DNA of 64,000 bases, from the NCBI GenBank assembly GCA_963732385.1, contig CAVSZB010000008.1:1-64000 (forward strand), written 5' to 3'. Below the pieces are notes generated by a model that was not told the DNA's origin, did not search any database, and saw only the letters and a list, made by a program, of their open reading frames with translations. The DNA is from an uncultured bacterium (lineage in GTDB: Bacteria; Krumholzibacteriota; Krumholzibacteriia; LZORAL124-64-63). Positions 288 to 40,022 of the stretch are shown piece after piece (the first letter of the stretch is position 1; each line of letters starts with the position of its first letter). Position numbers and translations under genes: made by a program.

Positions 288-1253
288 TTGGACAGCTTCT
301 CGTCGATCCAGAGACGGGACGGCCCCGCGGATCTCTCGGTGGTCGTAGTCATCCCAGCCAAGAACGAGGCGGCCAACATTCGGACCTGTCTGGAGGCCAT
401 CGCGGCCCAGGACTATCCGCCCGAACTGGTCCGGGTAGTGGTTGTCGACAACGGCTCCACCGACGATACTCAAGAGTTGGCCGCCGGGGCCGGCGTCACC
501 GTCCTGCTGGACCCCGAGTCGACTATCGCCGGCCTGCGCAATCGGGGCGCGGCCGCCTACGAAAGCGACGTCCTGGCTTTCCTCGATGCGGACATGATCC
601 CCTCCCCCGGTTGGCTGTGGGAGGCTATTTCCGTCCTGAAAGAAAATGGCGTGGGCGCCGTCGGAGGGATGCTGGACATCCCGGACGACGCACCCTGGGT
701 CGAGCGCGCCTGGTGCCTGAACCGTCGCACGAAGCCGCAGAAGGCGGAATTCCCCTGGCTGCCATCCGGGAACCTGCTGATCGAACGTGCGGCGTTCCGG
801 CAGGTCGGGGGCTTCGACGCGAACCTCACGACCTGCGAGGACGTGGACATCAGCGCCCGGCTGCGGCGGGCTGGCTACCGGCTGATGTTCGTTCGGAGCG
901 CCACGGTGGTTCACACCGGCGAGTCGAAGTCCATCGTCGCTATGTTCCGGAAGGAATTGTGGCGCGGCAAGAACAGCATCGGCCGGATCGGTGGCCTGCG
1001 CGAGAACCCGCGGGAGGCCGCCAGCATCCTGATCCCGGTTGTCCAACTCGTCCTGCTGTTGCTGCCGCCGGTCCTCCTCCTGGCGGGCCGGCCGCTGGCG
1101 GCGGCCGTCAGCCTGGCCCTGCCCTTGGGGCTGCCGGCCCTGCGGGCGGCGCTGATCAGCGTCAAGCTGAGCACGATCCGGCACTACTTGCCCCTGGTCG
1201 GGGTCTGGTACATTTACTACCTGGCCAGAGCCATCGCCGTGGTCTATCGGTGA
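288..1253 (+). CDS. Glycosyltransferase family 2 with C-terminal membrane segments
   Basis: Motifs VVIPAKNE, VVVDNGSTD, AFLDAD and EDVD; hydrophobic C-terminus. Start moved from ORF 27 to TTG at 285/288, which follows a purine-rich RBS-like run (GGAAGGAAGGGAA). Confidence 0.85.
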   Translation: MDSFSSIQRRDGPADLSVVVVIPAKNEAANIRTCLEAIAAQDYPPELVRVVVVDNGSTDDTQELAAGAGVTVLLDPESTIAGLRNRGAAAYESDVLAFLDADMIPSPGWLWEAISVLKENGVGAVGGMLDIPDDAPWVERAWCLNRRTKPQKAEFPWLPSGNLLIERAAFRQVGGFDANLTTCEDVDISARLRRAGYRLMFVRSATVVHTGESKSIVAMFRKELWRGKNSIGRIGGLRENPREAASILIPVVQLVLLLLPPVLLLAGRPLAAAVSLALPLGLPALRAALISVKLSTIRHYLPLVGVWYIYYLARAIAVVYR

Positions 1254-1281
1254 CTGTCCCCGCGCATCCCGAGGGAGTCCC

Positions 1282-2667
1282 ATGGTGAATTGGAAGGAAC
1301 GGCTTTACTACAACTCCCCGGGCTGGCTGCAGGACCTGGCGGTCTCGACCATGGGCCTGCAACTGCGGCGGCGGCGATACGGCCCCGCGGGACGGACCTT
1401 CTCGGAACTTCTGGACCGCACGCAGCGCCTGTCGGCAGCCGAGTTGGAGAATCTGCAGCGGGAGAGCTTCGCGGATCTCGTGAGGTTCGCCCTGGACCAG
1501 GTGCCCTTCTACCGGGATCTGGTGCGCCGGGATCCTTCGCTGGGGGACCGGCCGCCTTCCCTGGACGACATCGCACGCCTCCCTATCATCGACAAGGGCA
1601 TGCTCCGGGAGACGCCGGAGAGATTCCACGCCGAACGAGGCTCCTATCGGGGCCCCGTGTTCTCCCTGGGCACCAGCGGCACCAGCGGCACGCCGCTCAA
1701 GCTGCTCTGCGACAGCCCTGCCCGGCAGCGGCACTACGCCTTCTGGACGCGGTTGAGGCGGCAGAACGGGATTCCGGACGGTGCGCTGCGGGCCACCTTC
1801 TTCGGCCGCGTAATCCTTGCCCCCGACGCGGAGACGCCGCCCTTCTGGCGCCGCGACCGTGCCCAGAACATCCTGCTCTTCTCGTCCTACCACCTGGCCG
1901 AGCGGAACCTGCCCCATTACTACCGGAAGCTGTGCGAGGTCGCGCCCCGGGAGATCATTGGCTATCCCTCCAGTCTCTACCAGGTGGCCCGTTACATCGT
2001 GCGGGAAGGATTGCCCTTTCCCGCCCCCCGGGTCGTCTTTACGACCGCCGAGACGCTGCTCGCGCAGCAGCGCGCGACTATCGGGGAGGCCTTCGGCGCC
2101 CCGGTCATCGACCAGTATGGCTGCACCGAGATGGTGATCTTCGCGGCCCAATGCGTCCATGGCGGATACCATCTGCATCCGGAACATGGATACCTGGAGA
2201 TCTTGGACGACCGGGACCGGCCCGTGGGGCCGGGCGAGACGGGCTCCGCAGTCTGCACCGGTTTCCTGAACCGAGCCATGCCCCTGATCCGGTACCGCCT
2301 GGGGGACCGCCTGATGGCCGGCTCCGGGTCCTGCCCCTGCGGTTCAGCCTTTCCCCTGCTCGGCGGCATCGAGGGTCGCCTGGACGACGTCCTGCTGACG
2401 GTCGACGGCCGTCCCCTGACCCGGCTGGACCCGGTGTTCAAGACGCTGGGCGGCATCGCCGAGGCCCAGATCATCCAGCAGGAGAGAGACCTGCTGGTGG
2501 TCAGACTGGTGCCCGACGGCGTCTTCGACGAGGCCGGCGAACGCGCCCTCATCGGCGAGCTGCAGAAACGCGCGGGACGGGGCATGCGAATTCGGATCGA
2601 ACAAGTGGCCGAGATACCCAAGGACAGGAACGGGAAATTCCGGGCGGTCATCTCCCGGCTTTCCTGA
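1282..2667 (+). CDS. Phenylacetate-CoA ligase/CapK-like adenylate-forming (ANL) enzyme
   Basis: P-loop TSGTSGTP, YGCTE, PLIRYRLGD, GRLDD, terminal NGKFR; RBS GGGAG upstream. Confidence 0.85.
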   Translation: MVNWKERLYYNSPGWLQDLAVSTMGLQLRRRRYGPAGRTFSELLDRTQRLSAAELENLQRESFADLVRFALDQVPFYRDLVRRDPSLGDRPPSLDDIARLPIIDKGMLRETPERFHAERGSYRGPVFSLGTSGTSGTPLKLLCDSPARQRHYAFWTRLRRQNGIPDGALRATFFGRVILAPDAETPPFWRRDRAQNILLFSSYHLAERNLPHYYRKLCEVAPREIIGYPSSLYQVARYIVREGLPFPAPRVVFTTAETLLAQQRATIGEAFGAPVIDQYGCTEMVIFAAQCVHGGYHLHPEHGYLEILDDRDRPVGPGETGSAVCTGFLNRAMPLIRYRLGDRLMAGSGSCPCGSAFPLLGGIEGRLDDVLLTVDGRPLTRLDPVFKTLGGIAEAQIIQQERDLLVVRLVPDGVFDEAGERALIGELQKRAGRGMRIRIEQVAEIPKDRNGKFRAVISRLS

Positions 2668-2690
2668 GGCAGAGAACCGGAGAAAGCCGC

Positions 2691-3878
2691 TTGCGAAAAT
2701 CGTCCCCAGCGAATCCCGGACCGATACCCGTCCTGCACGTGGTGCACTGGCCCCGTAGCGGGATCACCTCGTTCCTGAAGAATCTGGTCCGGTTCGCGGA
2801 TCCGGATTCCTTCGCGCACAGCATCGCTTTCCTCCTGGCCGAGCAGGAGGAACTCGCCTGGTTCGCACGGCGCTGCCCCGCCGCGATGGACCTGGGGTTC
2901 GGCCGCGATCCGCTGCGAGCCCTACGGCGACTTGCGGCGCTGGTCAACCGGCCGGATGCCGCGTTGGTCCACACCCATTCCTTCCAGCCCGGCGTCTGGG
3001 CGCGGCTCTTCGGGAGCCGGGGCCGTGCGGCGGTCCTGTCGACGATCCACAGTCCCTATCCCTACTTTCTGGGGCGCACTCTCCCGGACCGGATCAAGGC
3101 GCAGATCGAGACCACCTCCATCAACCGCGCCGGACGCCCCGTGGTGGCTATCTCGGAGGCGGTTCAGAGGCATCTGTTGGCGAATACCGACATTGACCCC
3201 AGACTGATCCGGGTCGTCCGGAATGGACTCGATACCATGGCCCCCGAGGCGGAACCAGCGCCAGACCTGGCGCTGCCGGGGGCATCCGGCCGGGCGACCG
3301 ATGCCCGCACGGTGATCGCCGTTGCCAGGCTGAGCCGCGAGAAGGGGGTGGACATCCTCCTGCAGGCGTGGCCCGAAGTCGTCAGGGCTCACCCGCGGCT
3401 GCGGCTGGTGGTCGTCGGTGACGGCCCGGAGGCGGACGCCCTCCATGAACTGGTCCGCAGGACGGGCAGCGGGGAGTCGGTGACCTTCGCCGGCTACCGG
3501 CCGGAGGTGTCCTCCTGGCTGGCCGGCGCCGACGTGTTCGTCAATCCATCGCGTTTCGAAGGGCTGTCCATGAGCATCCTGGAGGCTCAGGTGGCCGGAG
3601 TGCCGGTCGTCGCCACCGCCGTGGGCGGGGTGCCAGAGATCATCCGGGACGGCGAGACCGGGACCCTGGTCGAGTCCGAGAATCCGGCCGCTCTGGCGGC
3701 GGCCATCGGAGCGGTCCTGGCCAGGCCGGAAGAGGCCCGGCGGATGGCCGAGGCGGGACGCCGCCGCGTCGCGGTCGAATTCGATATCCGTCGGACCGTC
3801 CGCAGCTACGAGGAAATCTACCGTGAGGTCCTGGCCGCGCCCGACGGCCGCTGCCCGAACGGAGGCGCCGGGACATGA
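2691..3878 (+). CDS. Glycosyltransferase family 4 (GT-B)
   Basis: VLHVV N-terminus, VARLSREKG, PSRFEGLSMSILEA (EX7E), PVVATAVGG. TTG start at 2691 after GGAG; upstream part of ORF 1290..3878 is a shadow of the preceding gene. Confidence 0.85.
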   Translation: MRKSSPANPGPIPVLHVVHWPRSGITSFLKNLVRFADPDSFAHSIAFLLAEQEELAWFARRCPAAMDLGFGRDPLRALRRLAALVNRPDAALVHTHSFQPGVWARLFGSRGRAAVLSTIHSPYPYFLGRTLPDRIKAQIETTSINRAGRPVVAISEAVQRHLLANTDIDPRLIRVVRNGLDTMAPEAEPAPDLALPGASGRATDARTVIAVARLSREKGVDILLQAWPEVVRAHPRLRLVVVGDGPEADALHELVRRTGSGESVTFAGYRPEVSSWLAGADVFVNPSRFEGLSMSILEAQVAGVPVVATAVGGVPEIIRDGETGTLVESENPAALAAAIGAVLARPEEARRMAEAGRRRVAVEFDIRRTVRSYEEIYREVLAAPDGRCPNGGAGT

Positions 3879-6124
3879 CCCAGGACCGGGACACGTGCCG
3901 GGACGACCACACCATCGAACTGATGGCCGTGGGCGACATGTGCTTTTCCGACCACCCGCTCTGCGCGGGTTTCGGCGTGGGCGCGCACATCGCCAGGAAG
4001 GGGTTCGACTTTCCGTTCGGGGGCGTGGCGGACGTGCTGGCGAGGGCCGACGTGGTCATCGGCAACCTGGAAACGAGCCTGGCGAAGGGGGGGGCGGGGC
4101 CGGCCGCCTTCCGCAGCGATCCCCGCGTGGCGGCGGCCCTGGCCCGGAACCACTTCGACCTGGTAACCGTGGCCAACAACCACTCCCTGCAGCAGGGCGA
4201 GGCTGCGTTCAGCGAGACGGTCAAGCACCTGCGGAACTCCGGCGTCGGGCCAGTGGGGCTGCACGCCCGGGGGGATTTCTCCTGTCGGCCGGAGTTCGTT
4301 GAGGCGCAGAGCCAGACCCTGGCCTTCCTGGGCTATTCGTTCACCGACGAAAATTTCCATCCCGCCGCCGAGGGCTACGCCCGCGGCGAGCCGGAACGAG
4401 TTTTCGCCGATGTGGCCCGGCTGGCGACTGAAGTGGACCACGTCGTGGTGGCCTGCCACTGGGGAGTGGAACTGGCTGAGGATCCGCCGCCGGGCGTCGT
4501 GGCCCTGGGCCGGGGCATCATCGACGCCGGGGCTCGGGTCGTGCTGGGCCACCATCCGCACGTCTGGCAGGGTGTCGAAGATTACCGCCACGGCGTGATC
4601 TTCTACAGCTTGGGGGATTTCATCTTCGACCTGGCCTGGTGCCGGAAGTGCCGGGAAACCGGGTTGGCCCGGATCCGGCTGGCCAGGGGGCGGCCGCCGA
4701 CCTGGGAGGTCGTGCCCGCAGTCATCGACCGTCAGCACCGGCCCGCGCCAGTGGTCGGACCGGCCGGGCAGCGGTGGCTGGCTCGGCTGCAGGAGCGCTC
4801 GGCCCGCGTCGCCGGGCTCGTCGCCGGGCTTCCCGGGGAACAGCCCTCGCCCGAGTTCCTGGCCCGCGTCCGGGCCAGGACAGTGGTCAATCAGCGCGCC
4901 AAGGTTCTCCACGTGCTGCGGAACTTCCATCGCCTGGGGCCCGGGCGCTTCTGGGGATTGGCCCGCGAGCAGGTGAGGGCCCGAATCGGCGCCTCGAGCT
5001 GCGATCCTGCGGTCGTGGCCATGGGGGACCGTGCGCCGCAAGCGGAGCCCATCAAAGTCCTCTACTGCATCGACGCGCTCGTGCGCGGCGGCACCGAACT
5101 GCAGCTCCTCGGGCTGATCAAACGTCTGGACCGCCGCCGGTTCAGTCCCTACCTCCTGACGATCCGGCCCTCCCCCGCTGAGCTGACGCCGGACGACTGT
5201 CCCCACCTGGCGTGGCAAGTGCCGCGGCTGCTCTCCCTGCGCGGGGTACGCGCAATGGCGCGGCTGGTCGGGATTCTGCGCCGGGAGGATTTCCGGGTCG
5301 TACAAACCTTCTTCCAGGATTCAACGATATTCGGCGGGACCGCGGCCCGTCTGGCCGGCGTGCCCGTACGGCTGGCCTGCTTCCGGGACCTGGGGTTCTG
5401 GCGCACGCGCGGTCAGACCCTGCTGCTGCGCCGGGTCTACCCCATGATGACCGGCTTTTTGTGCAACGCTGACGTGGTCAAGCGGCACGTCGTGGCGCAG
5501 CACGGGCTGCGGCCTGATCGCGTCGACGTGGTCTACAATGGGATCGACACCGCGGCGCTGCCTTGGGTGGACCATGCCGGGCCCACCCTGCACGTGGGCA
5601 TCGTGGGGAACCTGACTCGCCGGGTCAAGCGGACGGACCTGTTCATCCAGGCGGCCGCGGCGATCGCCCGCCGGCCGTCGGGCGAAAGCGTGACCTGGCA
5701 CGTCGTCGGGGACGGAGGACTGAGGGCCGAGTACGAGGCGCTGGCCCGCGCCGAGCGCATCGCCGACCGGGTGGTCTTCGCCGGTCGCATTGCCGATGTC
5801 GCCGCGTACCTGGAGCGACTCCAGGTCGGAGTGCTTTGCTCGGATTCGGAGGGATTCAGCAACGCGCTGCTCGAGTACATGCTCAAAGGGTGCGCCTGCG
5901 TGGCCACCGATGTCGGAGGCAACGCGGAGGCTGTTCGGCACGGTCGAACCGGACTGCTGGTGCCGCCGGGAAACGCCGCGGCCCTCGCCGAAGCCCTGGA
6001 GAAACTGATAGTGGACACGGCCCTGCGCCGGGAGCTGGCGCGGCAGGCCCGCGCCTTCGCCGAAGCGGGTTTCGACTGGGAGAAATGCGTGGCCGGACAC
6101 GAGGCGATCTACCTCGGCGAGTGA
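3875..6124 (+). CDS. Fusion of CapA/PGA_cap metallophosphoesterase-like domain (N-terminal) and GT4 glycosyltransferase (C-terminal)
   Basis: N-half: AVGD, GNLET, ANNH, HWG, GHHPH, YSLGDF. C-half from about 5021: KVLYCID..GGTE, SDSEGFSNALLE, ATDVGG. No stop codon between the halves; ATGA overlap with the upstream gene. Confidence 0.8.
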   Translation: MTQDRDTCRDDHTIELMAVGDMCFSDHPLCAGFGVGAHIARKGFDFPFGGVADVLARADVVIGNLETSLAKGGAGPAAFRSDPRVAAALARNHFDLVTVANNHSLQQGEAAFSETVKHLRNSGVGPVGLHARGDFSCRPEFVEAQSQTLAFLGYSFTDENFHPAAEGYARGEPERVFADVARLATEVDHVVVACHWGVELAEDPPPGVVALGRGIIDAGARVVLGHHPHVWQGVEDYRHGVIFYSLGDFIFDLAWCRKCRETGLARIRLARGRPPTWEVVPAVIDRQHRPAPVVGPAGQRWLARLQERSARVAGLVAGLPGEQPSPEFLARVRARTVVNQRAKVLHVLRNFHRLGPGRFWGLAREQVRARIGASSCDPAVVAMGDRAPQAEPIKVLYCIDALVRGGTELQLLGLIKRLDRRRFSPYLLTIRPSPAELTPDDCPHLAWQVPRLLSLRGVRAMARLVGILRREDFRVVQTFFQDSTIFGGTAARLAGVPVRLACFRDLGFWRTRGQTLLLRRVYPMMTGFLCNADVVKRHVVAQHGLRPDRVDVVYNGIDTAALPWVDHAGPTLHVGIVGNLTRRVKRTDLFIQAAAAIARRPSGESVTWHVVGDGGLRAEYEALARAERIADRVVFAGRIADVAAYLERLQVGVLCSDSEGFSNALLEYMLKGCACVATDVGGNAEAVRHGRTGLLVPPGNAAALAEALEKLIVDTALRRELARQARAFAEAGFDWEKCVAGHEAIYLGE

Positions 6125-6142
6125 CCCTGGGCAGGAGCGGAA

Positions 6143-7489
6143 ATGGCGCGATTCCCGAATTTCCTGGTGAGGAGTTTCTTCGAACCCCTGTGGGACGTGT
6201 ACGAAGGCAGTGTGCGCCTGAAGACCCTGCGCAGCCTGCGGCGGACGCAGTTCCACTCGCCAGAGCGGATCCGGGCGGAGCAGGACCGCATGCTCGCGCT
6301 CATCGTCGGCCACGCGGTCCGGACCAGCCCCTTCTACCGCCGCCGCTTCGCTGAGGCGGGGATAGACCCTGCGGCCGTCCATTCGATCGCGGACCTGGAC
6401 GGCCTGCCGCTCCTGACGAAATCCGACATTCGTGCCCACCTGGACGAGATCCTCTCTGGCGACTACGAGAAGGGCGTCCTGATCGGGGCCAAGACCGGCG
6501 GTTCCACGGGCGTGGCCTTGCAGATCTACTGCGATGTCCGGGGCGTGCAGGTGCGCAAGGCTGCGGCGTTGCGCTCGGACGAGTGGTCGGGCTGGCGGCT
6601 GGGCGAACCCCTGGCGGCGGTCTGGGGCAATCCGCCGGTACCGGTCACGTTCAAGAACCGACTGCGCGCCCTCTGTAAGGACCGCCTGATCTACCTGGAC
6701 ACCATGAGGATCGACGGTCCGGCAATCGATACCTTTGTCGCGCAGTGGCGCGTGCTGCGCCCGGGCTTGCTCTTCGGGCACGCGCACTCGCTATTCATCC
6801 TGGCGGAGAACCTGCTCGGGCGTGGCATCTCGATCCGCCCGCGGGGTATCGTGGCCACGAGCATGATGCTCATTCCCTCTGAGCGGCGGGTGATCGAGGA
6901 GGCCTTCGGTTCGAAGGTGACCAACCGTTACGGTTGCGAGGAGGTGAGCCTGATCGCCTGCGAGTGCGAGGAGCACCGCGGGCTGCACCTGAACGCCGAT
7001 CACAACATCGTGGAGTTCCTGCGCGACGACGGGACGCCCTGCCGGCCCGGGGAGGACGGCCGGCTGGTGATCACCGAGCTGGTCAACTTCGGCATGCCGA
7101 TGATCCGCTACGATGTCGGCGACCGCGGCGTGCCCGCCGATCGCCTCTGCCCCTGCGGACGCGGGCTGCCCCTGATGGAGTCGGTCACAGGCCGGACGGC
7201 CGATTTCCTGGTGGCCGAGCAGGGCTACCGGGTGGCAGGAATCTCGATCATCGAGAACTCCCTGACTCGGATCCCGGGTCTGCGCCAGATGCAGATTGTG
7301 CAGGACAGGGCCGACCACCTGCTGGTGAACCTCGTTGCCAGCGGGGATTACACCGCTGAGTCGGGGGGCGAACTCGTGGCCTCTCTCCGGAGAATACTGG
7401 GTGCGGGAATGCAGGTGGACTTGAACTTGGTAGAGGGCATTCCCCAAGAGAAGTCCGGGAAATATAGGTTCACAAAGTGTCTGATCTGA
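6143..7489 (+). CDS. Second phenylacetate-CoA ligase/CapK-like adenylate-forming enzyme
   Basis: KTGGSTG, RYGCEE, PMIRYDVGD, GRTAD, terminal SGKYR; RBS AGGAG. Confidence 0.85.
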   Translation: MARFPNFLVRSFFEPLWDVYEGSVRLKTLRSLRRTQFHSPERIRAEQDRMLALIVGHAVRTSPFYRRRFAEAGIDPAAVHSIADLDGLPLLTKSDIRAHLDEILSGDYEKGVLIGAKTGGSTGVALQIYCDVRGVQVRKAAALRSDEWSGWRLGEPLAAVWGNPPVPVTFKNRLRALCKDRLIYLDTMRIDGPAIDTFVAQWRVLRPGLLFGHAHSLFILAENLLGRGISIRPRGIVATSMMLIPSERRVIEEAFGSKVTNRYGCEEVSLIACECEEHRGLHLNADHNIVEFLRDDGTPCRPGEDGRLVITELVNFGMPMIRYDVGDRGVPADRLCPCGRGLPLMESVTGRTADFLVAEQGYRVAGISIIENSLTRIPGLRQMQIVQDRADHLLVNLVASGDYTAESGGELVASLRRILGAGMQVDLNLVEGIPQEKSGKYRFTKCLI

Positions 7490-7774
7490 CGACTGTCCGA
7501 GCAGGCAGGAGCCCGGAACGGCATCCCGCCGGTTTCTGCGAGTAAACCATCAAATCATCGAGCTGCCGGATCAAAATTCGCCCGAAGGACCGTAGCGGGC
7601 GCGGGTTCCGTCTCGTAAGCCGGGTTTCCGGACCATTTGCAACGGATCGATTATGATTGTAGCTAGTTGCCAATTGGCCAGAGGGCAGCGACATCGCAGA
7701 TCAACCCGCTACGCCAGCAGACGATAATCAGAAGACCAGGTAATTCTTGTTCGATCGGATCGGGCACCGGGGGA

Positions 7775-27720: not shown

Positions 27721-27733
27721 GATGGCGATCGAC

Positions 27734-29926: not shown

Positions 29927-29955
29927 AGAATAGTAAAATACCTCGCCGTTGTCTA
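29927..29955 (-). promoter_or_regulatory. Sigma70-like promoter for the 29786/28612 genes
   Basis: Minus strand TAGACA-17 nt-TATTCT, with an adjacent TATAAT, in an AT-rich patch of a divergent intergenic region. Confidence 0.5.
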
Positions 29956-30208
29956 CATTCGGCAAGTCCCGGCCGGCGACCGGGCGGGGGGCCGTTAAGT
30001 CGTTGCTTCAAGAGTCGCGGGGGCATAGAGTTGGCCAAAGCCTCCGATTCGGTTATCGTGATTCCTCTTCAACGATCCTGCGCTGGGATTCCGCTCCGGC
30101 GCCGGCCGCGCGGGGGCAGGGTCGCCGAGCGAGGAGGTTCCGCCGCGGCCGAAGTTAAGGCGGTTCGTCGCTGATCGCCAATTCCTAGCTGGGAACAGGG
30201 TCGACTCA

Positions 30209-31669: not shown

Positions 31670-32604
31670 AGCCTGAAATCAGCATCGTCGTGCCTCTGTA
31701 CAACGAGGAACTCGTGATCGGGGAGATGGCCCGCCGGTTGACCATGGTCATGGATGCGACGGGCCTGGAATACGAGATCGTGATGGTCAATGACGGCAGC
31801 CGGGACCGGACCGCGGAACTGGCGCGGGCGATCTGCGCGGGCGATCTGCGCTACAAACTGCTCGGTTTCTCGCGCAACTTCGGGCACCAGTTCGCCATCA
31901 CCGCTGGCATGGACCGCAGCCGTGGGCAGGCGGTCGTCGTCATCGACGCCGACCTGCAGGATCCTCCCGAGATCATCCCGGAGATGATCGCCAAGTGGCG
32001 CGACGGCTACCAGGTCGTCTATGGCCTGCGGGAGAAGCGCGAGGGCGAAAGCTGGTTCAAGCTGCTGACGGCCAGGATGTTCTACAGGATCCTCAGGCGG
32101 TTGACCGCCGTGGAGATCCCCGTCGACACCGGAGATTTCCGGCTGGTGGACCGACGTGTCCTGGACGAGCTCAAAACCATGCGCGAGCGGTCGCGCTTCG
32201 TGCGCGGCATGGTCAGTTGGGTTGGCTTCCGACAGGGCGCGGTGTCGTACGTCCGACACGAGCGGCACGCTGGCGAGACGAAATACCCCTTCTCCAAGAT
32301 GCTGAAGTTCGCCATCGACGGGTTGCTGGCCTTCTCGCAGGTTCCCCTGCGGCTCGCCTCGGGACTGGGCCTCGCGGCATCGCTGGTGAGCTTCATCTTC
32401 ATGATCTACGGGGTCGTGGTCAAGTACGTCGCCCCGGCGACGGTCATTCCCGGTTGGAGCTCCATTTTCTCGGCGATCCTGTTCCTCGGCGGGGTTCAGC
32501 TCATCTGTCTCGGGGTGCTCGGCGAGTACATCGGCCGCATCTACGAAGAGATCAAGAACCGGCCGCTTTATATCGTGGACGAGGAAATGAATTTCAAAGA
32601 ATGA
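31666..32604 (+). CDS. GtrB/ArnC-like polyprenyl-phosphate glycosyltransferase (GT2)
   Basis: ISIVVPLYNEE, NDGSRD, SRNFGHQ, IDADLQDPP, TGDFRLVDR, GEYIGRIYEE; two C-terminal TMs; ATGA overlap with the upstream gene. Confidence 0.9.
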   Translation: MKPEISIVVPLYNEELVIGEMARRLTMVMDATGLEYEIVMVNDGSRDRTAELARAICAGDLRYKLLGFSRNFGHQFAITAGMDRSRGQAVVVIDADLQDPPEIIPEMIAKWRDGYQVVYGLREKREGESWFKLLTARMFYRILRRLTAVEIPVDTGDFRLVDRRVLDELKTMRERSRFVRGMVSWVGFRQGAVSYVRHERHAGETKYPFSKMLKFAIDGLLAFSQVPLRLASGLGLAASLVSFIFMIYGVVVKYVAPATVIPGWSSIFSAILFLGGVQLICLGVLGEYIGRIYEEIKNRPLYIVDEEMNFKE

Positions 32605-33026
32605 GTACCGGCCGACAGTTCGTGAAGTTCGGCGTGGTGGGAGTACTGAACACTGCTGTCCAGTACGTCGTCTTCATTGTCCTTTTCCGGTCATTCGGAG
32701 TGCCGATGATGTTGGCGTCCGGAACCGGCTATCTGGCGGGAATCGTGAACAGCTATTTCATTAACCGCGCTTGGACCTTCCGAATGGACCGGTCCCGGAG
32801 CGCCGGCGAGTTCGCTAGGTTCGTAATCGTCAACGTCCTGGCCATGGGGATGAACCTGCTGGCGTTGAAGCTGCTGGTCTCACGCTCCGGGATGCTGCCG
32901 GAGGCGGCCCAGATGTGCGCCATCGGTGCCTCCCTCCTCGTAAACTTCGCGGGCAACAAGCTATGGACCTTCCGCGGGCCCGGTGGCCCGGCCGCGTTGG
33001 GCGGGAATGGAGCTGGAATTGACTAG
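32601..33026 (+). CDS. GtrA-family lipid-linked sugar flippase
   Basis: QFVKFGVVGVLNTAV, NRAWTF, NKLWTF; four TMs; ATGA overlap with the gtrB-like gene. Confidence 0.85.
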   Translation: MSTGRQFVKFGVVGVLNTAVQYVVFIVLFRSFGVPMMLASGTGYLAGIVNSYFINRAWTFRMDRSRSAGEFARFVIVNVLAMGMNLLALKLLVSRSGMLPEAAQMCAIGASLLVNFAGNKLWTFRGPGGPAALGGNGAGID

Positions 33027-34671
33027 GGACATGTCCTGGCGCCTGTCATGGTTCGTTCTGGCAGCGGCCCTCGTCCTGTCGCTGGTCCTGAAGGTTCCGC
33101 ACCTGGGCCTGGGGGCGCCCCATGTGACGATCGACGACGGCACGGCCTACAGCGGGGGTTTCTTGGTCTGGTTTGGCAACGCCCCGCCGCAGCGGATGTA
33201 CCTGGAGAGCTGGGTGAACGGCGTGTCCTCCCTGGCCGTCTACGTGGGCCGGAAGGCGGCGGTGGGAGATTTCCGGGGGCTGGGGCTGAACCTCGTGGCC
33301 GATGCCTACCGCGATTTCTACAACCATCCTGAGACCTACGTGAAGGTCTACCGCGGGCTCATGCTGGCCGTGGACCTGGCGACCGCCGCTCTCCTGCTCG
33401 CTCTGAGCCGGGCGCTCCTGCCCGGGAGGCGATTGCGCTGGGTGCCTGCCGTGGCGACCGCCATGTACCTGCTGTCCTACAACACGATCTGGTGCGACAT
33501 CGTCGCGCGCCCCGATACGTTGACGGCCTTCTTCGGCACCCTGGGACTGCTGGGCTACTACCGTTCGGATTTCGGCCGGCGGCGGCCGCCCTTCTATCTG
33601 GCGGCCGTCGCGTTCGGCCTGTGCGCGGGCATGAAGTTACACGGGGCTTTCTTCGTCGTCTTCATCCTGCTGGACATGGTCCGCGAGCACGGGTTGCGCA
33701 GGGGCTTGGCCACCGCTGCCCCGTTCGTGCTCGTCGCCGTATCCGTCTTCGCCGTGGCGGCAGGGACGCCTCTTTTCGATCCCCTGAAGTACGTCAAACT
33801 GCGGATGCTCAACGTGGCCGACGACAAGTCGCCGTGGATCCAATGGGGGGACCAGGTGGTGACAGCGTTGCGGGGTGCCGGCTGGCTGGTCCTGCCTCTG
33901 GTCGTATGGTCGGCGGTGGTGGCTTGGCGCGAACGAGCGGAGGCCGAGCAGAACCGGCTGCGCAGCCTGGCCCTGCTGGCCTCCTGTTGGCTGCTGCTCT
34001 TCCTGAGCCTCCGCCAGCTGCGCGCGTATTGGATGCTGCCTGCCCTGCCGCTGTTCTACCTGGCGGCCCTGGCATCGCTGGCGCGCCTGCGACGGGGGCG
34101 CCTGGTCGCCGTCGTGGTCGCGGCGCTGCTGCTGGCTCTGGGTTGGCAGAGCGTGGAGCAGGCCCGGAAGCTGCGCCGGGTGGGCTACGGGGAGCTGCGC
34201 GAGTGGGTGCGGGCGAACGTGCGCGCGGAAGAGCCTTTCTTCATCTTTGGTTACAGTGCCCTGGACCTCCCGAAGAATACGCAATGCATGTCGAAGACCC
34301 GGCAGGGCCTGGAGCGGGGCTTGGTCGCCGACCTGGCCGCCGGCGTTCCCTACGTCGAGCGCCACCTGAAGAACTGGGAGGAGCAGTCCGCGCTCGCGCT
34401 GATGGACCTGCTCGGATTCCGCAACGAGCCGGGGTGGGAGTTCTACAGCTACTACGCCACGCCCCTGGACCGCTTCCGAGGCATCGTCGACATCGATGAC
34501 ATGCGGTATCTCGTCGTCCAGGAGGGTTTCAATAGCCCTCCCGATTTCCCGCTCGGGGATTATCTGGCGGAGCATTTCGACCTCGCGGCCGCGGACGTCA
34601 CCGGCAACGGGGGAGGCGGCTTCGGCCTAGCCTACCAAATCTACAGGCGCAGGGGCGGGGATGCGAACTGA
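33007..34671 (+). CDS. GtrC/ArnT-like GT-C membrane glycosyltransferase
   Basis: Acidic DD pair after TM1 (TIDD), RPD and K motifs, about 10 TMs, soluble C-terminal domain; directly follows the gtrB/gtrA-like genes. Start 33007 or 33031. Confidence 0.65.
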   Translation: MELELTRDMSWRLSWFVLAAALVLSLVLKVPHLGLGAPHVTIDDGTAYSGGFLVWFGNAPPQRMYLESWVNGVSSLAVYVGRKAAVGDFRGLGLNLVADAYRDFYNHPETYVKVYRGLMLAVDLATAALLLALSRALLPGRRLRWVPAVATAMYLLSYNTIWCDIVARPDTLTAFFGTLGLLGYYRSDFGRRRPPFYLAAVAFGLCAGMKLHGAFFVVFILLDMVREHGLRRGLATAAPFVLVAVSVFAVAAGTPLFDPLKYVKLRMLNVADDKSPWIQWGDQVVTALRGAGWLVLPLVVWSAVVAWRERAEAEQNRLRSLALLASCWLLLFLSLRQLRAYWMLPALPLFYLAALASLARLRRGRLVAVVVAALLLALGWQSVEQARKLRRVGYGELREWVRANVRAEEPFFIFGYSALDLPKNTQCMSKTRQGLERGLVADLAAGVPYVERHLKNWEEQSALALMDLLGFRNEPGWEFYSYYATPLDRFRGIVDIDDMRYLVVQEGFNSPPDFPLGDYLAEHFDLAAADVTGNGGGGFGLAYQIYRRRGGDAN

Positions 34672-35833
34672 TCCCCTGCGCATCCTTCATTTCATCGACA
34701 GCGGCGGTCTCTACGGCGCCGAGAAGGTCATTCTGAACCTCTCGCGGCGGATGCTGGCCTCGCCGGACTACCGGCCCCTGGTCGGCTGCATCGTCTCGCG
34801 TCCGGACGAGCCCTGCGAGCTTTACGACGAGGCGAGGCGGCAGGGCATCGAGGCTCTGCGCCTGGTCATTCGCAATGGCCGCTTGGCCGAGGACCTGCCG
34901 CGCGTGGGCCGCAGGCTGCGGCGGGAGGGCGTCGGTCTGGTTCATTCCCACGGCTACAAAGCGTCGGTGTTCGGCTTCCTGTGCCGGCCCTGGTCGGGGG
35001 CGCCGGTCACCGCGACCTGCCACCTGTGGTTCAAGGGCGAGGGGCAGCCCCTGAAGATGAAGGCCATGCTGGTCGCCGAGAAACTGGTTTACCGCCGTTA
35101 CCGGGACATCGTCGGCGTTTCGCGACCGATCCGCGACATTCTGGTGGCGTCCGGCGTGCCCGCCGATAGGATCCACATCATCGAAAACGGGGTGGAGGTT
35201 GGCGAACGGTCCTCCCTCGACCCGGGCGCGGCGGCCGGGCTGAGGCGTAGCCTTGACCTGCCCGAAGAAGCGTTCCTCGTCTTTCACGCTGCGCGGTTGA
35301 ACCGACAGAAGGGGCAGGCGGACATCGTCAGGGCGGCCGCGCGCCTGCGGGCGGAGGGCGAGGACGTCCGCTTCCTGATCGTCGGTGACGGCCCGCTTGA
35401 GGGGGAACTGAAGGCGTTGGCGCAGGCGGAGGGGGTCGCGGACGTCGTGGTCTTCGGCGGCTTCCGCAAGGACATCGACGATCTGCTGCAGCTGGCCGAC
35501 GTGTTCGTGCTGCCCTCGCTGGACGAGGGAATGCCCATGAGCCTGCTCGAAGCGGTGTCGCGCCGCGTGCCGGTGGTTGCCACCGCGGTCGGTGACATTC
35601 CCCTCGTGATCGAACACGAGCGCTCGGGATTGATCGTGCCGCGCGGGGACGCTGCGGAGTTGGCGGCAGCCATCCGGAGGATCCTGCTGGACCCGCCGCA
35701 TGCGGCGATGATGGCCGAGAAGGCCCTGGAAGCGGTGCGGCGCGGCTATTCGAGCGAGGCGATGTTCGCGAAGTATGCCCAGATCTATTCCCGTTATGCC
35801 GGGCCCGAGGCTGCCGACGGAGGCGCAACTTGA
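34661..35833 (+). CDS. Glycosyltransferase family 4
   Basis: LRILHFIDSGGLYGAE, RLNRQKG, PSLDEGMPMSLLEA, PVVATAVG. Confidence 0.9.
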   Translation: MRTDPLRILHFIDSGGLYGAEKVILNLSRRMLASPDYRPLVGCIVSRPDEPCELYDEARRQGIEALRLVIRNGRLAEDLPRVGRRLRREGVGLVHSHGYKASVFGFLCRPWSGAPVTATCHLWFKGEGQPLKMKAMLVAEKLVYRRYRDIVGVSRPIRDILVASGVPADRIHIIENGVEVGERSSLDPGAAAGLRRSLDLPEEAFLVFHAARLNRQKGQADIVRAAARLRAEGEDVRFLIVGDGPLEGELKALAQAEGVADVVVFGGFRKDIDDLLQLADVFVLPSLDEGMPMSLLEAVSRRVPVVATAVGDIPLVIEHERSGLIVPRGDAAELAAAIRRILLDPPHAAMMAEKALEAVRRGYSSEAMFAKYAQIYSRYAGPEAADGGAT

Positions 35834-37407
35834 GCGAGACCAGAGGCACGATGAAGCACGCGGCGGTGTACAGCGCGGCCGCGATGCTGGGCCGCATGGC
35901 GGGCTTCCTGATGCTGCCCTTCTACGCACACATGCTGCAGGCCAACGGGTATGGGATCATCAGCCTGCTGGACGTGGGCCTGACCTTTCTGGCGACCATG
36001 GGTGGTACCAGCTCGTACCTGGCGATTATGCGCAACTACCACGACGAGACCGATCCCGCCGAGAAGATGAAGGTGATCAGTACCGGCTTCTACCTTGTGA
36101 CCTTCGGCTCCGTCGTCCTGACCCTGCCCTTCATCATCTTTGCCAAGCCGCTAGCAGCGTCTTTTCTGGATGGCCCGGAACAGGGACGCCTGATCATCCT
36201 GTCCATGCTCACCTTCATCGCCAACATGAGCGGCCAGGCGGCGACCACCTGGCTGGTGATCCGACAGCGTTCGATGTTGTACGGCGCCATCAACCTCGTT
36301 CGGCTGTTCGTGAGCCTGTCGCTGAACATCTGGCTTATCGTCGTTCGGGAAATGGGGCTGGACGGGTATTTCCTCAGCGGGCTGATTTCGGCGGCGCTTT
36401 TCTCGATCGTGTACATTTGGATTATCTTCCATGACTGCGGCAGGGCCTACAGCAAAGACATCGCCCGGCGCATCCGCGATTTCCTTTTCCCCCTGGTTCC
36501 GGGCAACCTGGTCCGCTTCGTCTCGCGGCAGTTCGAGAAAGTATTCGTCCGCTTCCGGATCGACATGAACTCGGTGGGCATTCTCGAGATGGCCTATCGC
36601 TTCCCCATCCTGATCTCGATGCTGATCGTGAACCCGTTCATGTCGGCCTGGGACACGAAGCGCTTCGAGATCGCCGACCAGCCCGGCGCGCCCGTGGTCA
36701 TCGGCAGAATGTATACCTGGTTCTTGTTCCTCATGACGTTCGGCGGTCTCATCCTGGCGGTCAACATAGATCTCATCCTGCAGGTCCTGACGCCGCCCGA
36801 GTTCCACCTGGCCCACAGGATCGCGCGCATTGAGATCGTCACGCTCATCCTCCAGGGATCCACGGCACACATGGTCTTCGGACTGCTCTATGCCAAGCAA
36901 ACCGGGCTCATCTCGAAGATCAACGCGGTGGTCGCGGTGGGCAAGGTCGGCCTGGCTTGGTTCCTGATCTCGCACTTCGGCATCTACGGGGCCGCCTTCT
37001 CGGCCGCGGTCGCGGAGATGGCCAACCTGCTGGTCTCATTCTTCCTGGCCCGGCGCCGGTACCGCATGGTGCTGGAATGGCCGAAGATATGGGTCATGGC
37101 GGGGCTGTCCGTCGGCATCTTTGTCGCGCTCGTCCGCTGGGACGTGTCGGGTTTTCCGCTGTTTGTCTACGTGAGGGACGACCTGTTGGTGCGCATCCAC
37201 GACGTGGCGTCGGGCACGTTCCTGGCCAAATGGAAGGGGGGCAAGCTGCCCGCCATGCTGCTGGCGGAGGCCGGGCCGGTTGCCGAGCTGATGCTCAAGA
37301 TCCCGCTCTCGGCGTCCTTCGGCCTCCTGTTGCCGTTCATCCACCGCGAATCGCGGTTGAAGATGGCGGCCACCCTGCGGTCCGGAATGGCGAGGTTCAG
37401 CCGCTGA
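35830..37407 (+). CDS. Wzx-type polysaccharide flippase (MOP superfamily)
   Basis: About 12-14 TMs, LPFYAHML..GYG, GIYGAA; TTG start with GGAGG RBS overlapping the upstream stop (alternative ATG at 35851). Confidence 0.8.
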   Translation: MSETRGTMKHAAVYSAAAMLGRMAGFLMLPFYAHMLQANGYGIISLLDVGLTFLATMGGTSSYLAIMRNYHDETDPAEKMKVISTGFYLVTFGSVVLTLPFIIFAKPLAASFLDGPEQGRLIILSMLTFIANMSGQAATTWLVIRQRSMLYGAINLVRLFVSLSLNIWLIVVREMGLDGYFLSGLISAALFSIVYIWIIFHDCGRAYSKDIARRIRDFLFPLVPGNLVRFVSRQFEKVFVRFRIDMNSVGILEMAYRFPILISMLIVNPFMSAWDTKRFEIADQPGAPVVIGRMYTWFLFLMTFGGLILAVNIDLILQVLTPPEFHLAHRIARIEIVTLILQGSTAHMVFGLLYAKQTGLISKINAVVAVGKVGLAWFLISHFGIYGAAFSAAVAEMANLLVSFFLARRRYRMVLEWPKIWVMAGLSVGIFVALVRWDVSGFPLFVYVRDDLLVRIHDVASGTFLAKWKGGKLPAMLLAEAGPVAELMLKIPLSASFGLLLPFIHRESRLKMAATLRSGMARFSR

Positions 37408-37608
37408 AATGGGACGTGGGTTCCCGGCAGGCGCTCTGATTTGGCCCAAGGGTTTGGGTTGAGGACAGATTTTTGCGCCGAGCCGGAGCAGAATCGGCGC
37501 AGGAATCGTCAGGTCGCTTCGCGTCAGTAGCGAAGGTGAAGACCGGGGAGTGCAATTCCAGCTGTGCAAGCGGCCATGGCGCAGGTTCTCCAATAAGGAG
37601 GGGCCCCG

Positions 37609-37887
37609 ATGGCGAAGAAACATCCGGACCAGACCGACAAGCGCGTCGACGAGTGGGCGAAGTACGCAATGGCCTAGCCAGCAAGCTGATTATGGGTGGT
37701 GATGGCGAGACGGAGATCGCTGTCCCGCGCGATCGCAACAGGGACTTCGAGCCGCAGTTGGTGCGCAAGCGACAGGCTCGTCTCCCGGGCTTTGACGAGA
37801 AGGTGCCTTCGCTGTGAGTGCGCGGCTTGACCACGCGGGAGCTGCAGGACCACCTGCGCGAGATCTGTCGTCCCGCCAGGGAGTGAC
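37609..37887 (+). mobile_element. Degenerate IS256-family transposase remnant
   Basis: AAGGAGG then ATG MAKKHPDQTDKRVDE, and in another frame RNG..K....GETEIAVPRDRNRDFEPQLVRKRQARLPGFDEKVPSL*VRGLTTRELQDHLREI; internal deletion/frameshift, in-frame TGA at 37815-37817, truncated before the DDE domain. Confidence 0.8.
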
Positions 37888-39033
37888 GTGAGCATTGCAC
37901 GCGGGATTCTTGCGGTCTGCCTCGCCATGCTGGCGTATGTCTACGCAGGCTATCCAATGCTGATCCGCCTCCTGGCGGGAGGGTTGCGTCGGCGCGTGGC
38001 TTCCGCGCCATGCGTCCCGTCGGTCACCGTGCTGATCGCCGCCCACAACGAAGCGAAACACGTCGTGGAGACGGTGCGGAACAAGCTCGCGCAGGACTAT
38101 CCGGTGGACCAGCTTGAAGTGATAGTGGTCTCCGATGGTTCGACCGATGGCACCGATGAGCTCGTGCGCGACATCGCCGACTCGCGCGTGCAATTGGTGC
38201 GGCAGGAGCCGCGGGCTGGCAAGACCGCTGGACTCAATCTTGTCGTGCCGCGCGCTCGCGGCGAGATTCTCGCCTTTGCCGACGCCAACTCCCTCTGGGC
38301 GCCCGATGCGCTGGCGCGTCTCGTCGAGTCGTTCGCTGACGCCACTGTCGGTTATGTGACCGGACGCATGGCCTACCGTGCGCCCGACGGCTCGCTCACT
38401 GGCGAGGGGTGCTCCACGTATATGCGCTACGAAAATGCCCTCCGCACGTGGGAGACCGCCTGTGGCTCGATAGTAGGCGTTGATGGTGGTATCGACGCTG
38501 TCCGGCGCGAACTCTACGTCCCGATGCGGGCGGACCAGCTGCCTGACTTTGTCCTGCCATTGCAGGTGCGCGGGCACGGCTTCCGGGTTGTTTACGAGCC
38601 GCGGGCCTTGCTCTACGAGGACGCACTCGCCGCGGCCGGCGATGAATTCCGGATGCGGGTGCGCGTCAGCCTGCGCGCGTTGCACGCGCTGCGCGACATG
38701 CGAGCGTTGTCCAATCCGCTGCGTTTCGGCCTGTTCGCTTGGCAACTCTGGTCGCACAAGTGGCTGCGCTACCTTGCGCCGTTGTTTCAGGCCGGCGCGT
38801 TTGTTGCCAACGTCGCGTTGGCCTGGGGGCCGGGGGCGATCGGGAAGGGGCTACTCGCCGCGCAGCTTCTGTTTTACGCCCTGGCCTGGATCGGCCACCG
38901 GAATCGCGCCGGCGACAGCCCGCGCCTGATTACTTTGGCGTATTACCTCTGTCTGGTGAACGCTGCTGCCGGCGTGGCGCTATGGCGCTTCTTGCGCGGC
39001 CAGCGGCAGGTCATCTGGCAGCCGCGAACCTGA
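37888..39033 (+). CDS. Membrane GT2 glycosyltransferase (CesA/IcaA-like)
   Basis: N-terminal TM, VTVLIAAHNE, SDGSTD, FADAN, YMRYE, C-terminal TMs; GTG start after GGGAG. Confidence 0.85.
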   Translation: MSIARGILAVCLAMLAYVYAGYPMLIRLLAGGLRRRVASAPCVPSVTVLIAAHNEAKHVVETVRNKLAQDYPVDQLEVIVVSDGSTDGTDELVRDIADSRVQLVRQEPRAGKTAGLNLVVPRARGEILAFADANSLWAPDALARLVESFADATVGYVTGRMAYRAPDGSLTGEGCSTYMRYENALRTWETACGSIVGVDGGIDAVRRELYVPMRADQLPDFVLPLQVRGHGFRVVYEPRALLYEDALAAAGDEFRMRVRVSLRALHALRDMRALSNPLRFGLFAWQLWSHKWLRYLAPLFQAGAFVANVALAWGPGAIGKGLLAAQLLFYALAWIGHRNRAGDSPRLITLAYYLCLVNAAAGVALWRFLRGQRQVIWQPRT

Positions 39034-39047
39034 GAGGGAACATTTCG

Positions 39048-40022
39048 TTGCGATTCCCTGAGCGTTTTCGCGGGCGAACGACAAAGTCAGCCTTCGTGTG
39101 CGCCCTGCATGGCTGGCTGCCGCCTCCGGGTCTGCGGCTGCGCGCCGGGGCCCTGCTGCTGCTGGTCCTGATCCTGTTCTTCGTGCCGCTGCCGGAAGAT
39201 TTCAAACGCTATCGCTGGCTCTCCATTCCCAGCGACCTGGTGCACGTGCCGCTGCTCGGCCTGCTCACCTGGGCGTTGCAGGCGCGCGGTCCGCTGCGCG
39301 GTCGGCCGGTGGCCGCGGCGGCGGCGACCGTTCTGGTGGGGCTGGCGATCGAGCTGGTGCAGTCGGTGACCGGTCGCGAGATGAGCCTGATCGACCTGGC
39401 GCTCGACGCTGCGGGGGCTGGGCTGGCGGTGTGCTGGGCGCGTCGGCGCGCCTGGCCGGCCACGGCGCTCGCCGCGGTGTTGGCGCTCTGTCTCGCCGTT
39501 CCTCTCTGGCATCTCTGGCCGGAGTGGAACCTCATCGCCGCCGAGCGTCTGGCGACGCGGCGCTTTCCTCTGCTGGCCGACTTCGAGTCGCCCGTAGAGC
39601 TGGGGAACTGGCGCCCCAACCACCACGGCTGGCTGCGGCGCGTGCCGCGCGCGGAGGGGGGGCATGCGCTCGCCATCACCGGCGCGCCGCCGGAGAGCTA
39701 CCCCGGCGCCAACCTGAACGGCTTCCCTCGCGACTGGACCGGCCACCGCCGGCTCGAGTGGGACGCCCGGGTCACGACCGCCGACTCGGTCCGCTTCATC
39801 GTTCGCCTCGATGATTTCGCCGCCCGTCGCGACGGCGCCTGGCTGGCCGCCCGCTTCACCGCAGGTCGTGCGTGGCGTCACTTCGTTTGGGAGCCGACCG
39901 ACGCTTTTGGCCGCAAACCGTCGCGCTCCCAGCAGCGCAACGATATGGACGGCGTCACGATCTACATCGCCCGGCCGGCCGTCCCGGTCACCCTGGAGAT
40001 CGATAATCTGCGGCTGCAATAG
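39048..40022 (+). CDS. VanZ-like membrane domain fused to a C-terminal carbohydrate-binding-like beta-sandwich
   Basis: DLVH, GLAIELVQSVTGREMSLIDLALD (VanZ pattern); LLADFES, DWTGHRRL, LEIDNLRL (CBM-like). Start uncertain. Confidence 0.6.
   Translation: MRFPERFRGRTTKSAFVCALHGWLPPPGLRLRAGALLLLVLILFFVPLPEDFKRYRWLSIPSDLVHVPLLGLLTWALQARGPLRGRPVAAAAATVLVGLAIELVQSVTGREMSLIDLALDAAGAGLAVCWARRRAWPATALAAVLALCLAVPLWHLWPEWNLIAAERLATRRFPLLADFESPVELGNWRPNHHGWLRRVPRAEGGHALAITGAPPESYPGANLNGFPRDWTGHRRLEWDARVTTADSVRFIVRLDDFAARRDGAWLAARFTAGRAWRHFVWEPTDAFGRKPSRSQQRNDMDGVTIYIARPAVPVTLEIDNLRLQ

Follow-up and report, generated by a model that had tools for sequence, protein, structure and literature searches.

We describe a nonribosomal peptide synthetase (NRPS)–polyketide synthase (PKS) cassette of about 20 kb (7.7–27.5 kb) that lies, with glycan genes on both sides, in a 64,000-nucleotide window formed by the first 64 kb of a contig (C8) from an uncultured Krumholzibacteriota genome (G000). 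The cassette is real, essentially intact and mobile, and belongs to a widespread orphan family of glycan-associated NRPS-PKS lines; its position in this particular glycan locus is partly incidental. The evidence lies in its gene content and catalytic motifs, its patchy distribution, its separability, and the cross-phylum co-occurrence of the synthase with a TIGR04325 protein, a 4'-phosphopantetheinyl transferase (PPTase) and a membrane glycosyltransferase, GT-C1. We tentatively propose that this mobile cassette in a family-wide glycan locus makes a small cationic product that GT-C1 would fix to the envelope via a lipid-linked sugar, a reading that we hold to be plausible but are not confident of.

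The megasynthase is encoded by an open reading frame at 7667–23128 on the forward strand (5,153 open codons; the true start is uncertain, at about 7775–7868). Pfam calls give the domain order C-A-T-KS-AT-ACP-AMT-C-A-T-C-A-T (C, condensation; A, adenylation; T, carrier; AMT, aminotransferase), with C0 at 7985–9037, A1 at 9368–10813, T1 at 10901–11092, KS at 11210–12703, AT at 13673–14518, ACP at about 14834–15046, AMT at 15569–16519, C1 at 16784–18106, A2 at 18170–19609, T2 between A2 and C2, C2 at 19964–21271, A3 at 21356–22786 and T3 at 22859–23053. The KS active site is marked by TACS, EAHGT and GHL (Cys/His/His), and the AT has the GHSLG form of GHSxG together with an atypical specificity motif, APHS. 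The AMT lysine, three A10 lysines and four carrier serine motifs were all found, as were the C1 and C2 motifs NHLVCDG and HHMVFDG. Codon usage agrees with that of the host (GC3 0.85–0.90).

An earlier note on this DNA had called the assembly line complete; the open frame and the elongation motifs bear this out, but the front end does not. The C0 motif, HNAVLDE, has Asn in place of the catalytic His, and C0 is preceded, at the N-terminal end of the protein (about 7799–8005), by the degenerate remnant of an A-domain small subdomain, which scores 16 bits where 500 shuffled sequences reached no more than 2.8. The remnant is fused directly to C0 at a common PLT motif with no T domain between them, a join that looks like a deletion scar. 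Because C0 lacks the catalytic His and the A remnant before it lacks a T domain, A1 probably starts the assembly line, and C0 is probably vestigial. Domain calls reveal no fatty-acyl loading (FAAL) domain in the megasynthase, which has only three A modules and a C0 without its catalytic His. No promoter or terminator consensus was found at 7400–7900, and no repeats or insertion scars mark the cassette ends in the window: among the 20 top-ranking of 45 direct and 25 of 46 inverted repeat families, most reflect paralogy of the A domains or brief matches expected by chance. A motif search for MbtH, a weak test, gave 0 matches in G000. KS/AT matches on contig C7 were considered as a second PKS in this genome and rejected, being fatty-acid synthesis genes by context.

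The specificity code of A1, DVWHLSLVNK, is Ser-like; that of A2, DPINYGMVAK, is unusual; and that of A3, DILQLGMVWK, is of a type that dominates the synthase family and that we take to be a Gly code. The A1 code is identical at 8 of 10 positions to a code assigned to Ser, DVWHFSLVDK, in the accessible part of the report on carenaemin (PMC8313283), and in the case of flavipulchrin an AMT domain is described as installing the amine at C-3 (PMC12819058). From the codes and the domain order we infer a product of the form 3,4-diamino-5-hydroxypentanoyl-X-Gly, which fits the amine-rich, Gly-containing product anticipated earlier.

Four genes complete the cassette. A stand-alone thioesterase (TE) with a TubC_N docking domain and a GxSxG motif (23125–24111, forward) is 50–52% identical to its counterparts in two relatives, G003 and G114. 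The TIGR04325 protein (24090–24872, reverse) scores above the curated cut-off and has a predicted class I S-adenosylmethionine-dependent methyltransferase fold, for which a fold search returned generic class I methyltransferases only (TM ≤0.52); it is the steadiest partner of the synthase family. GT-C1 is a PMT_2 membrane transferase (25079–26614, forward) whose best structural match is ArnT, and the PPTase (26563–27408, reverse) is 54–57% identical to those of G003 and G114. Open reading frame and Pfam/NCBIfam calls thus confirm the layout first described for this locus, namely a megasynthase, docked TE, methyltransferase, GT-C and PPTase amid glycan genes.

The distribution of these genes was followed through 90 genomes of the same family and 208 of the phylum. 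The AMT-C segment occurs in 4 of the 208 phylum genomes (G000 and the relatives G002, G003 and G114), and full-length GT-C1 only in G000, G003 and G114, with a match of any kind in 6 of 208. Among the 90 family relatives, three have the synthase, and 51 an orthologue of CapK2, one of the two PaaK/CapK-like ligases next to the cassette; 48 of these 51 have no synthase. Homologues of the other ligase, CapK1, are present in G017, G021 and G024, all without the synthase, and GT-C2, a putative second membrane transferase of the locus, is found in six of the 90 relatives, four of them without it. We annotated eleven stretches from ten relatives, ten of which are glycan stretches; where they reach the flanks, the glycan genes lie between hem genes and ispF-ddl-cysS. 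The glycan locus of G003 (contig C104) has 13 genes or gene halves in common with the window, at 32–87% identity, with CapK2 and the GT2 gene GT2b contiguous. G003 is the only other relative with a CapK1 above 70% identity and also owns a similar cassette; this pairing is a single case, and the cassette is present in 2 of the 8 genomes of its genus.

In G003 and G114 the cassette, arranged as PPTase-TE-cupin-PKS-NRPS-GT-C1-TIGR04325 plus a free A-T gene, stands beside an ABC transporter. The G114 copy (C9:147320–167081, L032–L033) lies between 283-bp direct repeats of 96% identity that duplicate the 5' end of the ABC ATPase gene. Repeated transposase-like open reading frames, presumably IS91-like, are seen near this cassette, and one also beside the G003 copy.

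Because the host locus is family-wide and the cassette rare and separable, the CapK ligases and GtrB/GtrA/GT-C2 are host genes. The CapK ligases, which the earlier note had offered as an attachment route, do not travel with the cassette and were rejected as the coupling step on their distribution; GtrB/GtrA/GT-C2 were likewise rejected as cassette parts, GT-C2 occurring in four genomes without the synthase. Relatives with the same glycan locus but no cassette, and homologues outside glycan loci, had both been named as observations that would speak against a link to the glycan. Each was made in part: the cassette is absent from all ten glycan stretches, and the G003 and G114 cassettes sit outside the glycan loci of their genomes.

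G002, an assembly made independently, shows the same left cassette junction; its contig ends before the right one. From about 960 to at least 16,600, G000 and G002 (G002:C11) are mostly 99.5–99.9% identical (96–99% at 10–14 kb), compared with about 91–93% in the flanks. This tract takes in four glycan genes and the synthase and is far more alike than its surroundings, so that the glycan genes and the synthase moved together; we read it as a serotype-switch-like exchange between two species. In a tree of 91 AMT sequences, in which deep nodes are weak, the window sequence clusters with P0113–P0127 (0.99) and not with G003/G114, which marks the window cassette, as judged by this domain, as a mosaic. 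A search for its nearest synthase relatives in 76 genomes, from the family of a Gemmatimonadaceae-labelled record, gave one 38% match only.

Related synthase segments are numerous elsewhere, with 4,574 proteins at E ≤1e-100 among 7,996 scored, lipopeptide-type lines included. The AMT-C segment is matched by 142 plasmid records, of which we opened 12 annotated ones. Seven (Rhizobium twice, Rhodobacter, Aliiroseovarius, Loktanella, Variovorax and Jannaschia) hold the homologue among flippase, glycosyltransferase and Wza-/Wzc-type genes, with no CapK annotated in any of the seven regions; the remaining five (Burkholderia, Ralstonia, Spirosoma, Planktothrix and Nostoc) are not in glycan loci, and the metabolite-type AMT clusters of Ralstonia, Planktothrix and Nostoc have ABC or MFS genes. 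Conversely, 19 of 22 plasmid records matching TIGR04325, many of them from related rhizobia, have AMT-C within 20 kb, the other three not being among the 40 matches listed. Among 80 metagenome loci, from which one duplicate was dropped, glycan markers (self-hits removed) accompanied 11 of 20 family loci with flanks of at least 6 kb, versus 0 of 17 aminotransferase-only and 0 of 2 outgroup NRPS loci; when at least 3 kb of flank was required instead, this gave 11 of 30, 1 of 26 and 0 of 5. The Fisher p of 2e-4 for this enrichment is overstated, because some of the markers derive from loci of the family itself and the loci lack independence. Exopolysaccharide (EPS) loci repeatedly contain homologous NRPS-PKS lines with an AMT, together with TIGR04325. 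The suggested tie between the NRPS-PKS and glycan loci therefore stands at the level of the family, in plasmids and metagenomes alike, but is not supported locally.

The window synthase has the core of this EPS-associated AMT family, A-T, KS-AT-ACP-AMT, C-A(Gly)-T, and its TIGR04325 and PPTase genes are partners typical of it. Its Ser-like starter code is unlike that of most other copies (DAFW/DALW..GGTFK), which we take to be of Val type. A cupin, a hydrolase pair and a WzxC-like flippase vary across the family, and tblastn with family queries gave no match in G000 to the cupin, the hydrolase 1/2 pair or the dedicated WzxC-like flippase. No product or function for the synthase family was found in the literature searched, subscription papers and supplements being outside its scope, and look-ups by sequence and by keyword gave nothing relevant on the form coupled to a GT-C. 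In Rhizobium sp. CCGE531 (L130 1–2845), curli genes csgG/F/H lie near the NRPS-EPS locus, with insertion sequence elements between.

GT-C1 is confidently predicted to have a GT-C fold (model pLDDT 92.9). Foldseek places ArnT first (5EZM/5F15; E ~1e-9, TM 0.56), followed by the lipid-donor transferases ALG12, OST and PglB; identity to ArnT is 13–14%, a 51-sequence GT-C1 profile gave 0 matches at E ≤10 among PDB sequences, and a search of the ESM Atlas returned PMT_2 clusters only. From 111 homologues, one of which (P0060) is from the cultured Ignavibacterium album, we fetched 74 loci, of which 59 were strong matches, 46 of these with at least 3 kb upstream (one short locus was omitted). NRPS/PKS domains lie within 4 kb in 25 of these 46 loci, compared with 0 of 14 loci of distant GT-C relatives. 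The NRPS-linked copies are labelled as Myxococcota, Ignavibacteria, Acidobacteriota and Gammaproteobacteria. In the GT-C1 tree the NRPS-adjacent copies occupy basal branches and the unlinked copies form a derived group with weak support; 27 further GT-C1 genomes have the AMT segment elsewhere (8), only a C domain (2) or nothing (17). The cross-phylum pairing of the synthase with an ArnT-like GT-C is the new element here.

Myxobacterial-type cassettes have the unit hydrolase 1 | hydrolase 2 - synthase - GT-C1 - TIGR04325 - cupin, at times with a polysaccharide deacetylase, and their wider flanks are mostly unrelated, non-glycan genes. Among 11 such cassettes extended upstream (three scanned by NCBIfam), six have a WzxC-like flippase next to the synthase. 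Since flippase and GT-C are kept there without soluble glycosyltransferases, this arrangement suggests that these cassettes have a lipid-linked route of their own.

Several variants were seen among the GT-C1 loci. In Ignavibacteria (L110, L111, L115 and L118 upstream; L037 and L055 downstream) the cassette is accompanied by PPTase, acetyltransferase, small carrier-like and AsnB-like genes, the latter two labelled from N-termini, and by NAD-synthase-like, acyl-ligase, ATP-grasp, HAD and GT2 genes. UbiA-HAD, FAD oxidoreductase and SDR genes, presumably a polyprenyl-phosphate-arabinose-like set, stand beside a related cassette in G240:C70 (L227), with look-alikes in G239:C16. L039 has a second uncharacterised membrane protein of 573 residues ahead of GT-C1 (8200–9921). 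The locus L073/G228, titled Klebsiella pneumoniae, comes from a 2.6-Mb bin with 42% GC in the fetched stretches, and its label is probably wrong.

In the pathway that we tentatively favor, the PPTase would prime the carriers, A1 would load Ser as the starter, and KS-AT-ACP would add one C2 unit whose β-keto group is aminated by AMT, giving a 3,4-diamino-5-hydroxypentanoyl chain to be extended by A2 with a small residue and by A3 with Gly. The TIGR04325 methyltransferase may tailor the chain, and the docked TE would pass it to an undecaprenyl-linked sugar instead of water. Outward flipping would fall to the host Wzx or GtrA in the window and, in many myxobacterial copies, to the dedicated WzxC-like gene. 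GT-C1 would then place the peptidyl-sugar on lipid A, a glycan or a protein of the envelope, in the way that ArnT transfers its amino sugar, while the CapK ligases and GtrB/GtrA/GT-C2 would serve the host glycan with no part in coupling. Generalized, and with still less assurance, this may be a cross-phylum assembly-line version of Arn/Dlt envelope remodelling, in which a cationic diamino-acyl-glycyl unit passes to polyprenyl phosphate and then, by way of a flippase and an ArnT-like GT-C, to the surface, and which could be plugged into unrelated glycan loci.

A number of observations weigh against this proposal. The front end of the window synthase is remodelled, with no complete module, and the TE is by its motif an ordinary Ser-type hydrolase. 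The window cassette itself holds no polyprenyl-phosphate-loading enzyme, flippase or amino-sugar genes. The nearest AMT relatives, P0113–P0127, mostly have a Ser module after AMT, and the G002 synthase copy has clustered 1–2-nt indels at 10.6–13.5 kb, from error or decay. The G114 cassette, beside its ABC transporter, is on a different contig from the glycan locus. On the side of the transferase, an NRPS is absent from the nearest 4 kb in 21 of the 46 GT-C1 loci, 17 of the 27 further GT-C1 genomes lack any AMT-C match, and no GT-C39/PMT gene is listed in the annotated EPS-embedded plasmid copies. The Spirosoma copy, with no glycan genes, is seemingly a family-type counter-example, and the glycan-marker set is partly family-derived, its loci not phylogenetically independent.

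An unlikely alternative, though one to be taken seriously, is that a free peptide is exported and then glycosylated on the outer side of the membrane by GT-C1 from a polyprenyl-phosphate sugar, yielding a diffusible or loosely bound glycopeptide. PMT-like mannosyltransferases occur in the ramoplanin, teicoplanin and mannopeptimycin clusters, GT-C enzymes transfer sugars and the TE is canonical; GtrB/GtrA could supply the polyprenyl-phosphate sugar from within the locus, UbiA-HAD, FAD-oxidase and SDR genes flank the related G240 cassette, and an ABC transporter lies just past the contig end. Carenaemin, as far as the accessible text describes it, is likewise a diffusible PKS-NRPS product needing a Wzy-type sugar locus (PMC8313283). 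However, neither an exporter nor a resistance gene moves along with the cassette, unlike in the Ralstonia, Planktothrix and Nostoc clusters, and dedicated flippases and placement in Wza/Wzc operons better fit lipid-linked intermediates. Alternatively, the TE might directly acylate the growing repeat unit of the host glycan on the cytoplasmic side, leaving export and polymerisation or ligation of the decorated unit to the host Wzx and the PF04932 protein, with GT-C1 as an accessory. We consider this distinctly unlikely: G003 and other relatives have this host locus but no cassette in it, and the adjacency of GT-C1 and synthase far from glycan genes would go unexplained, even though the EPS-embedded Rhizobium, Rhodobacter, Loktanella, Jannaschia and Variovorax copies lack an annotated GT-C39/PMT and are accompanied by genes for a flippase, Wza/Wzc and a priming transferase (plus, in some cases, a DegT aminotransferase), and glycan genes and synthase were swapped as one block between G000 and G002.

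The rarity of the synthase (4 of 208 genomes), the different places it occupies in G003 and G114, along with direct repeats, the vestigial front end and the indels of the G002 copy would all suit a passenger that fell into a hot spot of recombination, is unconnected with this glycan and may be in decay. Mobile DNA often lands in glycan loci. Against this stand a 15-kb frame that is open with all elongation motifs, host-like codon usage and the enrichment of the synthase family beside glycan genes, and we regard a passenger as quite improbable. Least probable by far is a route in which the carboxyl group of a uronate in the host glycan is activated by a CapK-like ligase, which then joins the released amine-rich peptide to it through an amide bond. 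VpsH, which adds glycine to L-GulNAcA, offers a precedent in the accessible part of its description (PMC13463779). In the tract common to G000 and G002, both CapK genes moved together with the synthase, and one GT-C1 homologue adjoins a CapK in G238; the CapK2-bearing genomes without the synthase, the CapK1 homologues of G017, G021 and G024 and the lack of an annotated CapK in the EPS-embedded plasmid regions nevertheless argue against it. To our knowledge, the vps cluster needs no NRPS for glycine addition.

The earlier note knew of no described pathway with this layout, and thereby overlooked an orphan NRPS/PKS/glycosyltransferase/PPTase cluster of Roseobacter, reportedly described by Martens et al. 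in 2007, whose product is also unknown. This four-gene cluster is present in 28 of 57 Roseobacter genomes and, according to the accessible parts of papers from 2015–2016, was still an orphan at that time (PMC4337385, PMC5014874). Compared by description and not by sequence, it resembles the window in its hybrid NRPS-PKS and PPTase and may do so in its glycosyltransferase, and Roseobacter-group plasmids (Loktanella, Jannaschia, Aliiroseovarius) have AMT-type homologues of the window synthase in EPS loci. The window differs in its membrane GT-C, docked TE, TIGR04325 protein, three A modules and Ser-like starter; the cassette's own transferase is the GT-C, and the soluble glycosyltransferases belong to the host locus.

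ArnT has in common with GT-C1 the predicted GT-C fold and, if our proposal holds, the logic of a lipid-linked cationic unit that is flipped and transferred; the window cassette lacks arnBCAD-type genes, and its proposed donor would come from the NRPS-PKS. DltABCD and AlmEFG are carrier-protein systems of envelope decoration with one A domain, a carrier and an acyltransferase. They place amino-acid units on surface glycolipids or polymers, as proposed here, but have no multimodular NRPS-PKS with a GT-C. For carenaemin, made by Collimonas arenae Cal35, a PKS-NRPS product is again dependent on a Wzy-type sugar locus, and its Ser A-domain code is close to that of A1; the loci differ in having a KR-type PKS (AMT and GT-C are not mentioned in the accessible part of the report), two separate loci and an MFS transporter in the region, and the product is a diffusible antifungal (PMC8313283). 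VpsH, a phenylacetate-CoA-ligase-like enzyme of the Vibrio polysaccharide locus, resembles the window CapKs as a PaaK-like ligase in a Wzx/Wzy locus that amidates a uronate; by analogy it is likely a model for both CapK-like genes, but it adds a single glycine and accounts for host genes, not the cassette (PMC13463779, accessible part). The LOS-IV glycolipid of Mycobacterium marinum, with its pyrrolidone-substituted dideoxygalactose, is similar to our proposal in that a cyclic N-acyl unit is placed on a surface glycolipid, and LOS-IV is completed outside the cell (PMC12507525). AMT lipopeptide lines such as those of bacillomycin (BamA, which is among the AMT-C matches) and flavipulchrin (PMC12819058) have the KS-AT-ACP-AMT-C core that installs a C-3 amine. 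These lines start from a fatty acid and make long peptides, whereas the window line is short and has an amino acid as its starter; the fatty-acyl loading and long peptide of the iturin/mycosubtilin type are not matched in the window.

If the product is envelope-bound, this would explain why mining of culture extracts misses it, and would add a route to positive charge on bacterial surfaces that is relevant to biofilms, adhesion and defence against phages or peptides. The GT-C subfamily provides a concrete handle, since a GT-C1 mutant should pile up the lipid-linked intermediate. Cultured, non-pathogenic Rhizobium (sp. CCGE531, SL42), Variovorax (V. paradoxus), Rhodobacter (sp. CZR27) and Loktanella have the synthase family, so the glycan question is testable now.

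The host glycan genes left of the cassette, all on the forward strand, are a GT2 gene (288–1253) in which the identity switch relative to G002 falls near position 960, CapK1 (1282–2667), a GT4 gene (2739–3878), a PGA_cap (CapA-like)-GT4 fusion (3875–6124) whose halves match two separate G003 genes, and CapK2 (6143–7489). The fusion also gives a weak match to the model of the lasso-peptide epimerase MslH. On the right, GT2b (27734–28612, reverse) adjoins CapK2 in G003 and G114 with no cassette between, and is followed by a probably secreted protein (28707–29786, reverse) with a signal-peptide-like start, as judged by eye, and no Pfam match, recurrent in the glycan loci of the family. The rest of the locus, all forward, comprises a PF04932 Wzy/O-ligase-like gene (30209–31669), GtrB (31666–32604), GtrA (32601–33026), the putative GT-C2 (33007–34671) and, at 34661–40022, a GT4 gene, Wzx (35851–37407), a GT2 gene and a VanZ-like gene, beyond which lie ispF-ddl-cysS. 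Earlier labels for the GT2/GT4 genes, the two CapK-like ligases, GtrB, GtrA and Wzx were upheld, but two others are less secure: GT-C2, named from hydropathy and position, has no Pfam or NCBIfam match and no detectable similarity to GT-C1, and PF04932 membership does not by itself show whether a protein is an O-ligase or a Wzy polymerase, the top NCBIfam match of that gene, TIGR03097, being below cut-off. The window locus has no priming transferase or Wza/Wzc gene; matches in G000 are on contig C7 only.

The window begins at a contig end, and G002 shows that its start continues into the start of contig C5 of G000, where, some 2.3 kb from the start of the window, there is an ABC transporter gene whose product has Walker A and signature motifs. 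The reported lack of an exporter is therefore partly an edge effect. Transporter-like genes, judged from size, position and N-terminus, appear to flank the locus in cassette-free relatives as well. The adjoining block in G000 (C5:1–5904) has UDP-GlcNAc 2-epimerase, ABC transporter, NTP_transf_5 and PqqD genes, and a block resembling it seems to border this glycan locus in several relatives. At the other end, the window from 40129 to 64000 is housekeeping DNA, with ispF, ddl, cysS, a DUF5916/CBM9 protein, five tRNAs, tuf, rpl genes, rpoB/C and fusA, most of these names being read from the sequence.

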